Below, piece after piece: positions 3,816 through 20,412 of a DNA stretch of 64,000 bases. Made by a program: the position numbers and the translations under genes. A model generated the notes under the pieces. That model made no database searches. It had not been told where the DNA came from and was given only the letters and a program-made list of their open reading frames with translations. The DNA lies in NCBI RefSeq assembly GCF_003334405.1, contig NZ_QOWM01000008.1; one strand, given 5' to 3'. This DNA comes from Escherichia coli (GTDB lineage: Bacteria > Pseudomonadota > Gammaproteobacteria > Enterobacterales > Enterobacteriaceae). Each line of letters begins with the position of its first letter. Positions within the stretch are counted from its first letter, which is position 1.

Positions 3816-4084
3816 TATGGTTATCCCTTTGCAGATGAATTTATCGAAAATGTAAAAAATAGGTAGGAAAAATAACAGAAAGTGTCTGGATATCGGTAAC
3901 ATTTTACGAATTTTTACCCCGCTGTCGATTTTTTACTCATTGGGGCATAAAAATAAGTATTACGTTTAGACAATGTTTGTTTTAGCGTTTCTTAAGAAGA
4001 GTCTGACCTGAAAATTCTTATGTTTTGGCAAGAGTAGATATTGTTGACCACACTTAATGTTCAACTTTGTAAAAGGAGTCAACG

Positions 4085-9584: not shown

Positions 9585-9849
9585 GTAAACCTCTTCCTTC
9601 AGGCTTTAAATGAGCAATAACCTTAATGAATGTGACGATACATTCTGGAATGGCAGTATTCTCGGCTATTGGCTGAAGTATACCCATACCCGGAAAGAGT
9701 TACTCCTTATTTGCCGTGTGGTTAGTCGCTTTACATCGGTAAGGGTAGGGATTTTACAGCACCGTGAAAAATCTCATAATTTTTATGAAGTCACTGTACT
9801 CACTATGGGTAATGATAAATATCAATGATAGATAAAGTTATCTTATCGT

Positions 9850-9863
9850 TTGATTTACATCAA
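9850..9863. promoter_or_regulatory. FNR box TTGATttacATCAA in the narK promoter
   Basis: Perfect FNR consensus palindrome about 60-70 bp upstream of narK; NarL-heptamer-like TACYYMT motifs nearby. Confidence 0.7.
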
Positions 9864-9922
9864 ATTGCCTTTAGCTACAGACACTAAGGTGGCAGACATC
9901 GAAACGAGTATCAGAGGTGTCT

Positions 9923-11314
9923 ATGAGTCACTCATCCGCCCCCGAAAGGGCTACTGGAGCTGTCATTACAGATTGGCGACCGGAAGATCCTGCGTTCTGG
10001 CAACAACGCGGTCAACGTATTGCCAGCCGCAACCTGTGGATTTCCGTTCCCTGTCTGCTGCTGGCGTTTTGCGTATGGATGTTGTTCAGCGCTGTTGCGG
10101 TGAACCTACCGAAAGTCGGCTTTAATTTTACGACCGATCAGCTATTTATGTTGACTGCGCTGCCTTCGGTTTCTGGCGCGTTATTACGTGTTCCATACTC
10201 CTTTATGGTTCCTATCTTCGGTGGTCGTCGCTGGACGGCGTTCAGCACCGGTATTCTGATTATTCCTTGCGTCTGGCTGGGTTTTGCCGTGCAGGATACC
10301 TCCACGCCTTATAGCGTCTTCATCATCATCTCTCTGCTATGCGGCTTTGCTGGCGCGAACTTCGCATCCAGTATGGCAAACATCAGCTTCTTCTTTCCGA
10401 AACAGAAGCAGGGTGGCGCGCTGGGTCTGAATGGTGGTCTGGGAAACATGGGCGTCAGCGTCATGCAGTTGGTTGCTCCGCTGGTGGTATCACTGTCGAT
10501 TTTCGCAGTATTTGGTAGCCAGGGCGTCAAACAGCCGGATGGGACTGAGCTGTATCTGGCGAATGCGTCCTGGATATGGGTGCCGTTCCTTGCCATCTTC
10601 ACCATTGCGGCGTGGTTTGGCATGAACGATCTTGCTACCTCGAAAGCCTCCATCAAGGAGCAGTTGCCGGTACTCAAACGGGGTCATCTGTGGATTATGA
10701 GCCTGCTGTATCTGGCAACCTTCGGCTCCTTCATCGGCTTCTCCGCGGGCTTTGCAATGCTGTCAAAAACGCAGTTCCCGGATGTTCAGATTCTGCAATA
10801 CGCTTTCTTCGGGCCGTTTATTGGTGCGCTGGCGCGTTCTGCAGGTGGTGCATTATCTGACCGTCTGGGCGGAACTCGTGTCACGCTGGTGAACTTTATT
10901 CTGATGGCGATTTTCAGCGGCCTGCTGTTCCTGACCTTACCGACTGACGGGCAGGGCGGAAGCTTCATGGCGTTCTTCGCGGTCTTCCTGGCGCTGTTCC
11001 TGACAGCTGGGCTGGGTAGTGGTTCCACTTTCCAGATGATTTCAGTGATCTTCCGTAAACTGACAATGGATCGCGTGAAAGCAGAAGGGGGTTCTGACGA
11101 ACGTGCGATGCGTGAAGCGGCAACCGACACGGCGGCGGCGCTGGGTTTCATCTCTGCGATTGGCGCGATTGGTGGCTTCTTTATCCCGAAAGCGTTTGGT
11201 AGCTCGCTGGCATTAACGGGTTCGCCAGTCGGCGCAATGAAGGTATTTTTGATTTTCTATATCGCCTGCGTAGTGATTACCTGGGCGGTATATGGTCGGC
11301 ATTCTAAAAAATAA
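9923..11314 (+). CDS. narK: Nitrate/nitrite transporter NarK (MFS), 463 aa
   Basis: ORF track 9917..11314; start placed at MSHSSAPERATGAV... Confidence 0.95.
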   Translation: MSHSSAPERATGAVITDWRPEDPAFWQQRGQRIASRNLWISVPCLLLAFCVWMLFSAVAVNLPKVGFNFTTDQLFMLTALPSVSGALLRVPYSFMVPIFGGRRWTAFSTGILIIPCVWLGFAVQDTSTPYSVFIIISLLCGFAGANFASSMANISFFFPKQKQGGALGLNGGLGNMGVSVMQLVAPLVVSLSIFAVFGSQGVKQPDGTELYLANASWIWVPFLAIFTIAAWFGMNDLATSKASIKEQLPVLKRGHLWIMSLLYLATFGSFIGFSAGFAMLSKTQFPDVQILQYAFFGPFIGALARSAGGALSDRLGGTRVTLVNFILMAIFSGLLFLTLPTDGQGGSFMAFFAVFLALFLTAGLGSGSTFQMISVIFRKLTMDRVKAEGGSDERAMREAATDTAAALGFISAIGAIGGFFIPKAFGSSLALTGSPVGAMKVFLIFYIACVVITWAVYGRHSKK

Positions 11315-11724
11315 ACCGTTACTCGTCATACTTCGGGTTACATGTGCTGCGGCTGCGTTCATTCACCCCAGTCACTTACTTTAGTAAGCTCCTGGGATTC
11401 ATTCACTTGCCGCCTTCCTGTAAACCGAATTATATAGAGTAAAATATTTGATTATCCTTTGCGCGGCATGATGTCGCGCTTTTTTTATGCGTCATTTAGT
11501 TACAACATACTAATGTTATATGGTTTATTTCGCCGGATTTCATTAAGAGCCATTAATATGTTACCCATGGGGAATACTCCTTAATACCCATCTGCATAAA
11601 AATCTTAATAGTTTAAATAACTACAGGTATAAAACGTCTTAATTTACAGTCTGTTATGTGGTGGCTGTTAATTATCCTAAAGGGGTATCTTAGGAATTTA
11701 CTTTATTTTTCATCCCCATCACTC

Positions 11725-11738
11725 TTGATCGTTATCAA
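11725..11738. promoter_or_regulatory. FNR box TTGATcgttATCAA in the narG promoter
   Basis: Consensus FNR palindrome about 95 bp upstream of the narG ATG; long AT-rich upstream region consistent with known NarL/IHF-bound narG control region. Confidence 0.7.
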
Positions 11739-11829
11739 TTCCCACGCTGTTTCAGAGCGTTACCTTGCCCTTAAACATTAGCAATGTCGATTTATCAGAG
11801 GGCCGACAGGCTCCCACAGGAGAAAACCG

Positions 11830-14800
11830 ATGAGTAAATTCCTGGACCGGTTTCGCTACTTCAAACAGAAGGGTGAAACCTTTGCCGATGGGCATGGCCA
11901 GCTTCTCAATACCAACCGTGACTGGGAGGATGGATATCGCCAGCGTTGGCAGCATGACAAAATCGTCCGCTCTACCCACGGGGTAAACTGCACCGGCTCC
12001 TGCAGCTGGAAAATCTACGTCAAAAACGGTCTGGTCACCTGGGAAACCCAGCAGACTGACTATCCGCGTACCCGTCCGGATCTGCCAAACCATGAACCTC
12101 GCGGCTGCCCGCGCGGTGCCAGCTACTCCTGGTATCTTTACAGTGCCAACCGCCTGAAATACCCGATGATGCGCAAACGCCTGATGAAAATGTGGCGTGA
12201 AGCGAAGGCGCTGCATAGCGATCCGGTTGAGGCATGGGCTTCTATCATTGAAGACGCCGATAAAGCGAAAAGCTTTAAGCAGGCGCGTGGACGCGGTGGA
12301 TTTGTTCGTTCTTCCTGGCAGGAGGTGAACGAACTGATCGCCGCATCTAACGTTTACACCATCAAAAACTACGGCCCGGACCGTGTTGCTGGTTTCTCGC
12401 CAATTCCGGCAATGTCGATGGTTTCTTACGCATCGGGTGCACGCTATCTCTCGCTGATTGGCGGTACTTGCTTAAGCTTCTACGACTGGTACTGCGACTT
12501 GCCTCCTGCGTCTCCGCAAACCTGGGGCGAGCAAACTGACGTACCGGAATCTGCTGACTGGTACAACTCCAGCTACATCATCGCCTGGGGGTCAAACGTG
12601 CCGCAGACGCGTACCCCGGATGCTCACTTCTTTACTGAAGTGCGTTACAAAGGGACCAAAACTGTTGCCGTCACACCAGACTACGCTGAAATCGCCAAAC
12701 TGTGCGATCTGTGGCTGGCACCGAAACAGGGCACCGATGCGGCAATGGCGCTGGCGATGGGCCACGTAATGCTGCGTGAATTCCACCTCGACAACCCAAG
12801 CCAGTATTTCACCGACTATGTGCGTCGCTACACCGACATGCCGATGCTGGTGATGCTGGAAGAACGCGACGGTTACTACGCTGCAGGTCGTATGCTGCGC
12901 GCTGCTGATCTGGTTGATGCGCTGGGCCAGGAAAACAATCCGGAATGGAAAACTGTCGCCTTTAATACCAATGGCGAAATGGTTGCGCCGAACGGTTCTA
13001 TTGGCTTCCGCTGGGGCGAGAAGGGCAAATGGAATCTTGAGCAGCGCGACGGCAAAACTGGCGAAGAAACCGAGCTGCAACTGAGCCTGCTGGGTAGCCA
13101 GGATGAGATCGCTGAGGTAGGCTTCCCGTACTTTGGTGGCGACGGCACGGAACACTTCAACAAAGTGGAACTGGAAAACGTGCTGCTGCACAAACTGCCG
13201 GTGAAACGCCTGCAACTGGCTGATGGCAGCACCGCCCTGGTGACCACCGTTTATGATCTGACGCTGGCAAACTACGGTCTGGAACGTGGCCTGAACGACG
13301 TTAACTGTGCAACCAGCTATGACGATGTGAAAGCTTATACCCCGGCCTGGGCCGAGCAGATTACCGGCGTTTCTCGCAGCCAGATTATTCGCATCGCCCG
13401 TGAATTTGCCGATAACGCTGATAAAACGCACGGTCGTTCGATGATTATCGTCGGTGCGGGGCTGAACCACTGGTATCACCTCGATATGAACTATCGTGGT
13501 CTGATCAACATGCTGATTTTCTGCGGCTGTGTCGGTCAGAGCGGGGGCGGCTGGGCGCACTATGTAGGTCAGGAAAAACTGCGTCCGCAAACCGGCTGGC
13601 AGCCGCTGGCGTTTGCCCTTGACTGGCAGCGTCCGGCGCGTCACATGAACAGCACTTCTTATTTCTATAACCACTCCAGCCAGTGGCGTTATGAAACCGT
13701 CACGGCGGAAGAGTTGCTGTCACCGATGGCGGACAAATCCCGCTATACCGGACACTTGATCGACTTTAACGTCCGTGCGGAACGCATGGGCTGGCTGCCG
13801 TCTGCACCGCAGTTAGGCACTAACCCGCTGACTATCGCTGGCGAAGCGGAAAAAGCCGGGATGAATCCGGTGGACTATACGGTGAAATCCCTGAAAGAGG
13901 GTTCCATCCGTTTTGCGGCAGAACAACCAGAAAACGGTAAAAACCACCCGCGCAACCTGTTCATCTGGCGTTCTAACCTGCTCGGTTCTTCCGGTAAAGG
14001 TCATGAGTTTATGCTCAAGTACCTGCTGGGGACGGAGCACGGTATCCAGGGTAAAGATCTGGGGCAACAGGGCGGCGTGAAGCCGGAAGAAGTGGACTGG
14101 CAGGACAATGGTCTGGAAGGCAAGCTGGATCTGGTGGTTACGCTGGACTTCCGTCTGTCGAGCACCTGTCTCTATTCCGACATCATTTTGCCGACGGCGA
14201 CCTGGTACGAAAAAGACGACATGAATACTTCGGATATGCATCCGTTTATTCACCCGCTGTCTGCGGCGGTCGATCCGGCCTGGGAAGCGAAAAGCGACTG
14301 GGAAATCTACAAAGCCATCGCGAAGAAATTCTCCGAAGTGTGCGTCGGCCATCTGGGTAAAGAAACCGACATCGTCACGCTGCCTATCCAGCATGACTCT
14401 GCCGCTGAACTGGCGCAGCCGCTGGATGTGAAAGACTGGAAAAAAGGCGAGTGCGACCTGATCCCAGGTAAAACCGCGCCACACATTATGGTCGTAGAGC
14501 GCGATTATCCGGCGACTTACGAACGCTTTACCTCTATCGGCCCGCTGATGGAGAAAATCGGTAATGGCGGTAAAGGGATTGCCTGGAACACCCAGAGCGA
14601 GATGGATCTGCTGCGTAAGCTCAACTACACCAAAGCGGAAGGTCCGGCGAAAGGCCAGCCGATGCTGAACACCGCAATTGATGCGGCAGAGATGATCCTG
14701 ACACTGGCACCGGAAACCAACGGTCAGGTAGCCGTGAAAGCCTGGGCTGCCCTGAGCGAATTTACCGGTCGTGACCATACGCATCTGGCGCTGAATAAAG

Positions 14801-19569: not shown

Positions 19570-20412
19570 TTAAAGAATAATCGTTCGATTACCGTAAACA
19601 AAGACGCGCTGTGCCAGTACTTTGTATAGTGCACGACTTAAGACGTTTTTCTCGACGTCACGACCTGCGCGCATCATATCTTCAGCTGTGTAGGTATGAT
19701 CGACATGAATAACGTCCTGCATGATGATTGGGCCTTCGTCCAGATTGTCATTCACATAGTGAGCGGTTGCGCCAATAATCTTCACACCACGTTCATAGGC
19801 CTGGTGATAAGGACGTGCGCCAATAAACGCTGGCAGGAATGAATGGTGAATATTGATGATCTTATTCGGGAAGCGTGCCACAAATTCCGGCGTTAATACC
19901 CGCATATACTTCGCCAGCACCACGTAGTCAGGTTGATAAGCATCAATGGCATCCGCCATCTTTTGATCGTGCTCGTTGCGGGTTAACCCTTCATGGCTTA
20001 CCAGCTCAAACGGAATATCAAAACGCTCAACCAGAGAACGTAAAGTATCGTGGTTACCAATAACTGCCGCGATTTCGACATCCAGGCCGCCGTAATTGGC
20101 TTTCATCAACAAATCGCCAAGGCAATGCGCTTCTTTAGTGACCAGAATCACTATCCGGCGACGACCGGCAGGATTCAGCTCACGCACGGAGCCTTCTGGC
20201 AATGCGCTATCGAGATCCGCCAGCAGGGTGGAATCATTAAAAATCCCTTCCAGTTCCGTGCGCATAAAAAAGCGCCCGGTACGGTGATCAACAAATTCAT
20301 TGTTCTGTACGATATTTAACTCGTGCTTGTAGCAAATATTGGTAATACGTGCGATCAGACCTTTTTGGTCCGGACAAATAGTACGCAGAACTTTACGTTG
20401 GAGTGAATGCAT
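19570..20412 (-). CDS. purU: Formyltetrahydrofolate deformylase PurU, 280 aa
   Basis: ORF track; ACT domain plus formyltransferase domain. Confidence 0.95.
   Translation of the reverse strand: MHSLQRKVLRTICPDQKGLIARITNICYKHELNIVQNNEFVDHRTGRFFMRTELEGIFNDSTLLADLDSALPEGSVRELNPAGRRRIVILVTKEAHCLGDLLMKANYGGLDVEIAAVIGNHDTLRSLVERFDIPFELVSHEGLTRNEHDQKMADAIDAYQPDYVVLAKYMRVLTPEFVARFPNKIINIHHSFLPAFIGARPYHQAYERGVKIIGATAHYVNDNLDEGPIIMQDVIHVDHTYTAEDMMRAGRDVEKNVLSRALYKVLAQRVFVYGNRTIIL

Follow-up and report, generated by a model that had tools for sequence, protein, structure and literature searches.

The 515-bp gap between narK and narG of Escherichia coli is very probably a composite of known elements and not a single narG control region

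In the 64,000-nucleotide stretch of Escherichia coli DNA analyzed here (the window; positions are counted from its first nucleotide), narL and narX on the minus strand are followed by narK, an intergenic gap, and narG and narH on the plus strand. The narK open reading frame spans positions 9917-11314 (annotated start 9923) and narG starts at 11830, which leaves a gap of exactly 515 bp (11315-11829), as stated in a preliminary description of this DNA. What does a gap of this size contain, considering that RefSeq has no annotated feature between narK and narG? The preliminary description assigned all of it to narG, as one long AT-rich leader and control region. The gap is 100% identical to the narK-narG intergenic region of E. 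coli K-12 MG1655 and was found in 5,417 of the 5,426 complete E. coli genomes. Its G+C content is 39%, compared to ~55% in the flanking genes, so that AT-rich is an apt term. The analysis described below, in which sequences, positions, statistical enrichment, conservation and the presence or absence of an ERIC repeat among strains were observed directly, indicates that the gap very probably combines four known elements instead of forming a single control region (Table 1).

Table 1. Features of the narK-narG gap (window coordinates; offsets refer to the predicted narG transcription start)
Feature	Position	Strand	Details
ERIC (IRU) repeat, 123-bp imperfect palindrome	11320-11442		in narK 3'UTR just after the stop codon
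NarS, conserved part	11443-11486	+	seed TTGATTATCCTTT 11448-11460; terminator stem 11461-11479; T7 11480-11486
TerD, 23-bp Tus-binding Ter site	11493-11515	-	5'-CATTAGTATGTTGTAACTAAATG-3' on the minus strand
Distal NarL cluster	11562-11591	+	TACCCAT 11562-11568 (-208); TACTCCT 11575-11581 (-195); TACCCAT 11585-11591 (-185)
Predicted IHF core TTACAGTCTGTTA	11644-11656	+	center -123; A/T-rich tract before it
Proximal high-affinity NarL heptamer TACCCCT	11681-11687	-	center -89
FNR box TTGATcgttATCAA (also given as TTGATCGTTATCAA)	11725-11738		class II activating site, published center -41.5
-10 hexamer TACCTT	11761-11766	+	conserved as GTTACCTT
Predicted narG 5'UTR, 57 nt	11773-11829	+	box, hairpin, Shine-Dalgarno
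Box AGCAATGTCGATTT	11780-11793	+	+8 to +21
Candidate hairpin GGGCC/GGCUC	11800-11804 and 11809-11813	+	before the Shine-Dalgarno
Shine-Dalgarno AGGAG	11818-11822	+	

To obtain evidence independent of the K-12 literature, we collected 120 loci, one genome per species, that were fetched solely with a degenerate pattern covering NarG codons 1-13. The phylogenetic footprint was derived from the 70 alignable sequences, namely the window and 69 relatives, and shows that the narG promoter sites are conserved across Enterobacteriaceae. The FNR consensus TTGAT-N4-ATCAA has a perfect match in the gap, and the 64-kb window contains 3 occurrences of the pattern TTGATNNNNATCAA, compared to 0.08 expected. 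The center of the box lies 98.5 bp upstream of the narG ATG, and the distance of about 95 bp given in the preliminary description is a fair approximation; the spacing that matters for FNR is, however, that to the transcription start (-41.5) and not that to the ATG. In 85 of the 121 coding-anchored loci, an exact FNR consensus precedes the narG ATG by 98-155 bp, and 94 loci have a box with at most one mismatch; in the footprint, every position of the box, the spacer included, is at least 80-90% conserved. The narGHJI operon is among those found to be directly activated by FNR, with a site at -41.5, in a genome-wide ChIP and transcriptome study (PMC3688515). This published class II position, along with the conservation in relatives, bears out the assignment of the box as an activating site.

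The possibility that the FNR-like palindrome is a functionless chance match in AT-rich DNA has one observation in its favor: a perfect match need not mark a promoter, given that one of the window's three, TTGATAAGCATCAA at 19933-19946, lies within the coding region of purU (ORF 19570-20412, minus strand). The expectation of 0.08 matches per 64 kb, the retention of the box and its spacer at a constant distance from the -10 hexamer in 85 to 94 of the 121 species, and the place of narGHJI on the list of directly FNR-activated operons (PMC3688515) render this explanation negligible, and we treat the box as the FNR site of the narG promoter. The remaining perfect match, TTGATTTACATCAA at 9850-9863, is located 66.5 bp upstream of the narK start at 9923 and is preceded by three exact NarL heptamers (9681, 9701 and 9805; span 9681-9811); together, these presumably constitute the promoter of narK within the divergent region between narX and narK.

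The -10 hexamer TACCTT begins 29.5 bp from the center of the FNR box, the optimal class II spacing according to the 29-bp rule for class II activators (PMC9314961). From the published FNR position of -41.5, we infer that narG transcription starts at 11773, which would leave a 5'UTR of 57 nt. A sigma-70 promoter scan called no narG promoter, an outcome to be anticipated where transcription depends on activators and the -35 element is poor.

The preliminary description further suggested that the AT-rich DNA upstream of the FNR box holds NarL heptamers and an IHF site, to be sought between 11550 and 11700. For NarL, a scan of these 151 bp supports the suggestion: there are four exact TACYYMT heptamers within 11562-11687, compared to ~0.1 expected from the window-wide density, and nowhere else in the 64-kb window are four heptamers equally close together. 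The positions of these heptamers, -208, -195, -185 and -89, agree with the published footprints of phosphorylated NarL, which cover the "-195 region" and the "-89 region" of the narG promoter (PMC4549865). The proximal heptamer TACCCCT forms a 7-2-7-like arrangement with TTATCCT at 11672-11678. Across species, an exact heptamer is found at -195 or -196 from the FNR-anchored transcription start in 60 of 90 cases; the block TACyCCTTAATACC (-198 to -185) is at least 90% conserved in the 70-sequence footprint, and GGGGTA (-90 to -85) is conserved as well (consensus of the relatives, TACCACTTTGGTGGTA). Elsewhere in the window, three exact NarL-type heptamers occur within 100 bp at 3859-3959, in the terminal part of the chaA ORF and in the divergent spacer between chaA and chaB; these may be chance matches.

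For IHF, the outcome depends on the method. The scan of 11550-11700 detected no match to the IHF consensus with one mismatch or fewer, and the K-12 sequence alone would not support an IHF call. The cross-species alignment, on which the predicted core is based, points to 11644-11656, at about -123, where the 70 sequences have the consensus AATCAATAAGTTA, which matches WATCAANNNNTTR perfectly and follows an A-rich tract. The consensus scans missed this core because it differs from WATCAANNNNTTR by three mismatches in K-12; the best-conserved CA and TTA, positions that are at least 90% conserved among the relatives, are retained. An alternative match with two mismatches at 11632-11644 (-135) was rejected given that the alignment points to 11644-11656. 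The IHF site of the narG promoter was mapped near -125. Taken together, the FNR and NarL sites and the predicted IHF core all fall at the published positions, and in this respect the reading of the gap as narG promoter DNA was correct; its extension to one 515-bp leader or control region was not. IHF is required at the narG promoter, and its site has been drawn between the two NarL regions in studies that do not state the exact position (PMC3688515, PMC4549865, PMC9314961).

The left part of the gap belongs to narK. A terminator scan identified the intrinsic terminator of narK with a fold energy of -13 kcal/mol. A conserved single-stranded seed is located directly upstream of this Rho-independent terminator, the arrangement by which NarS is recognized; both the seed and the terminator are conserved in Salmonella, Citrobacter, Enterobacter, Leclercia, Cedecea and Kosakonia. 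NarS is an Hfq-dependent small RNA that is cut from the 3'UTR of the narK mRNA through processing by RNase E and represses nirC (Wang et al. 2020, PMC7038943). The nirC gene is absent from the 64-kb window, and no Rfam family matches NarS.

Between the narK stop codon and the NarS seed lies a dispensable insert. In approximately 55% of the 5,417 E. coli genomes, the match to the query is confined to positions 129-515, and affine-gap pairwise alignment of the window with O157:H7 and Nissle reveals a clean 123-bp gap that coincides with 11320-11442. The segment contains terminal and central inverted repeats, folds as RNA into a long hairpin, and includes the ERIC2 primer site (19 of 19 positions) and the ERIC1R primer site (18 of 19), the primer sequences having been confirmed from the literature. 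The imperfect palindrome and the presence of both primer sites identify it as an ERIC/IRU repeat, which is thus present in approximately 45% of the genomes. Under permissive thresholds, Rfam yielded only a sub-threshold match to V_AS5, which corresponds to the ERIC repeat, and a spurious lncRNA match. No target-site duplication is evident at the ends of the element. The length of the insertion, 123 bp by comparison with ERIC-less strains, differs from the 170 nt reported for K-12 in the NarS paper (PMC7038943). The ERIC element would lengthen the NarS precursor. A related ERIC copy with 87% identity is found on a plasmid, next to prfH, yafP and dinB.

Immediately downstream of the narK terminator, the 70-sequence footprint contains an invariant 15-mer, TAGTTACAACATACT, at 11497-11511. 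Binding sites of ModE, OmpR, GntR, OxyR or other LysR-type regulators, NsrR and Fis were considered for this block, and none of them fitted; a literature match led to publications on Tus-Ter. The 15-mer is part of a 23-bp Ter site that we take to be TerD on the basis of the core match, the orientation and the chromosomal position at ~1.279 Mb; the exact 23-mer found no verbatim match in the papers searched. The minus-strand G6, which pairs with the plus-strand C at 11510, and positions 8-18 are all present, in accordance with the core rule for Ter sites (position 6 plus 8-18; PMC8347550), and positions 5-21 are identical to those of TerB (PMC4499146). A helicase that meets the non-permissive face of a Ter site travels 5' to 3' on the G6 strand (PMC4499146), so that, with G6 on the minus strand, forks moving toward lower coordinates would be arrested; TerD is known from the literature to arrest counter-clockwise forks. 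In the window, the plus strand is leading for the normal fork, as indicated by GC skew (+0.028), KOPS (7:1) and Chi (10:4), and the orientation of the site fits these data, in that the normal fork would pass and forks that leave the terminus would be blocked. Binding of TerA-E and TerG in vivo has been detected by Tus ChIP-seq (PMC8707476).

In 54 of the 120 species, the Ter core recurs unchanged at this location and with this orientation. Across genera, it is located 8-12 bp after the narK terminator (in the window, 6 bp after the T-run), and its distance to the -195 NarL heptamer is mostly 62-88 bp, commonly 74-77, but also 19, a variability indicating that the Ter site is not phased with the narG promoter. 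This bears on a different interpretation of the 15-mer, under which it would be a far-upstream transcription-factor site of the narG promoter and not a Ter site: the block lies at -276 to -262, in most species mostly 62-88 bp upstream of the -195 NarL heptamer, and shows the same invariance as the FNR and NarL sites. A transcription-factor site would nevertheless account neither for the match to the Ter core at every position (G6 and 8-18) nor for an orientation that always fits the fork trap, and it is at odds with the variable distance to the NarL site and with the detection of TerD in vivo by Tus ChIP-seq (PMC8707476). We therefore regard this interpretation as highly improbable and assign the block to TerD.

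Tus can be displaced by transcription that reaches its Ter site on the permissive side. If this applies here, a site that follows a strong terminator and precedes the narG promoter would be sheltered, with the narK terminator protecting Tus-TerD from transcription of narK. The location of TerD between narK and narG, or its retention in many genera, is not mentioned in two of the publications cited above (PMC8707476, PMC8347550), and according to one fork-trap paper, the relation of the Ter sites of Salmonella and Klebsiella to those of E. coli is unclear. The position of a Ter site just after the narK terminator in many genera is possibly undescribed.

These findings allow us to delimit what belongs to narG. 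The left ~200 bp consist of the narK 3'UTR, with the ERIC element, NarS and the terminator, and of TerD; the DNA that controls narG extends roughly from 11560 to 11773, and the transcribed leader is the predicted ~57 nt at 11773-11829, so that neither a 515-bp leader nor the attribution of the whole gap to narG can be maintained. The narG share of the gap is the right-hand ~290 bp only. The notion that the entire 515 bp form one long AT-rich leader and control region of narG draws on the low G+C content of 39%, the location directly upstream of narG, and the presence of FNR, NarL and IHF sites within the interval. It conflicts with the narK terminator at 11461-11486, the assignment of 11443-11486 to NarS and of 11493-11515 to a Ter site, the dispensable 123-bp repeat that is missing from ~55% of strains, and the short leader proper of ~57 nt. 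Moreover, the published "full-length" narG promoter fragments begin at -223 or -236, near 11540 (PMC4549865, PMC9314961). Accordingly, a single narG region appears very unlikely, and a composite gap is the reading that we adopt.

Within the narG share, the 5'UTR is notable for its very strong conservation: in the 70-sequence footprint, most positions from +8 to +57 reach at least 90%, a level similar to that of coding DNA. Two features stand out. The first is the box, the CAATG of which lies 48.5-50.5 bp from the center of the FNR site in 63 of 77 loci, with distances to the ATG that range from 33 to 95 bp; thus, across Enterobacterales and Vibrio, the distance from the box to the promoter is fixed and that to the ATG is variable. 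The second is a short GC-rich hairpin, located a few nucleotides ahead of the Shine-Dalgarno, that is found in most species, with different, compensating stems between genera: CAGGU/ACCUG in Vibrio, ACGGCG/CGCCGU and GACGCC/GGCGUC in Providencia, GGGCC/GGCCC in Yersinia, and CAAAG/CUUUG in Rahnella. No such hairpin is present in Serratia, Pantoea or Erwinia. Per-sequence folding of 82 distinct sequences gave a mean shuffle z-score of -2.0. RNAalifold predicted no pairs on the MAFFT alignment of the 5'UTRs, given that the hairpins are not aligned in register. The region chosen as a folding control, -160 to -132, is a poor one (mean MFE -5.3), and the evidence for the hairpin accordingly consists of the shuffle z-scores and the variety of compensating stems.

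To our knowledge, no function is known for the box and the hairpin, and a 2021 review of post-transcriptional control in nitrate respiration gives none for narG itself (PMC8139620). The conservation of the two features is possibly undescribed; on sequence grounds it may be considered a lead. That the narG 5'UTR carries an undescribed regulatory element, composed of the promoter-locked box and the GC-rich hairpin, is a tentative proposal that we consider possible but rather doubtful. If it holds, the processes that the box and the hairpin could jointly control include promoter escape or pausing, the stability of the mRNA, and translation of the nitrate reductase. A 17-codon upstream ORF, MSIYQRADRLPQEKTDE, extends from an ATG at 11784, within the conserved box, to a TAA at 11837 and overlaps the narG start codon. 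As a conserved gene, this ORF was rejected: in Enterobacter, it is interrupted by a stop after 3 codons, and elsewhere indels shift the frame.

Combining these assignments with protein binding and regulatory effects that are taken from the literature, we propose a map of the gap. From left to right, it consists of the narK 3'UTR (11315-11486), TerD (11493-11515), the narG promoter (~11560-11773) and the 57-nt 5'UTR. The narK 3'UTR would yield NarS, cut from the narK mRNA and repressing nirC, and TerD would let the normal fork, which moves toward higher coordinates, pass and trap forks returning from the terminus. When oxygen is absent, FNR bound at -41.5 would act as a class II activator through contact with RNA polymerase; when nitrate is present, phosphorylated NarL would bind around -89 and at -208, -195 and -185; and IHF would bend the DNA at about -123, bringing the distal NarL complex close to the promoter.

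Co-activation of the narG promoter by FNR, NarL and IHF is textbook knowledge, and confirming it adds nothing new. The useful result is the corrected map, considering that RefSeq annotates none of the elements and that labeling the whole gap as the narG control region would overlook that a Ter site, a small regulatory RNA and a mobile repeat share these 515 bp. In methodological terms, coding-anchored phylogenetic footprinting recovers every known site, including the predicted IHF site that the consensus scan of K-12 missed.

The narG promoter, TerD, NarS and ERIC have all been previously described in the literature, and each can be compared to its known counterpart. The promoter is identical in sequence to the known K-12 narG promoter, with FNR at the published -41.5, NarL heptamers at -208, -195, -185 and -89, the predicted IHF core near -123 and the -10 hexamer TACCTT; there is no difference between the two, and the known promoter covers only about 11560-11829 of the interval. 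The Ter site corresponds to TerD of the Tus-bound E. coli fork trap, sharing G6, the TerB-like core at 8-18, the counter-clockwise block and the location at ~1.279 Mb, with no difference from K-12. The ERIC/IRU element is an ordinary copy of this family of ~125-bp imperfect palindromes, which are transcribed and intergenic and carry both ERIC-PCR primer sites. In NarS, the seed UUGAUUAUCCUUU and the terminator are as in Salmonella and other genera; the version in the window is that of K-12, with ERIC between the narK stop codon and the seed, whereas the ~55% of E. coli without ERIC have a Salmonella-like arrangement.
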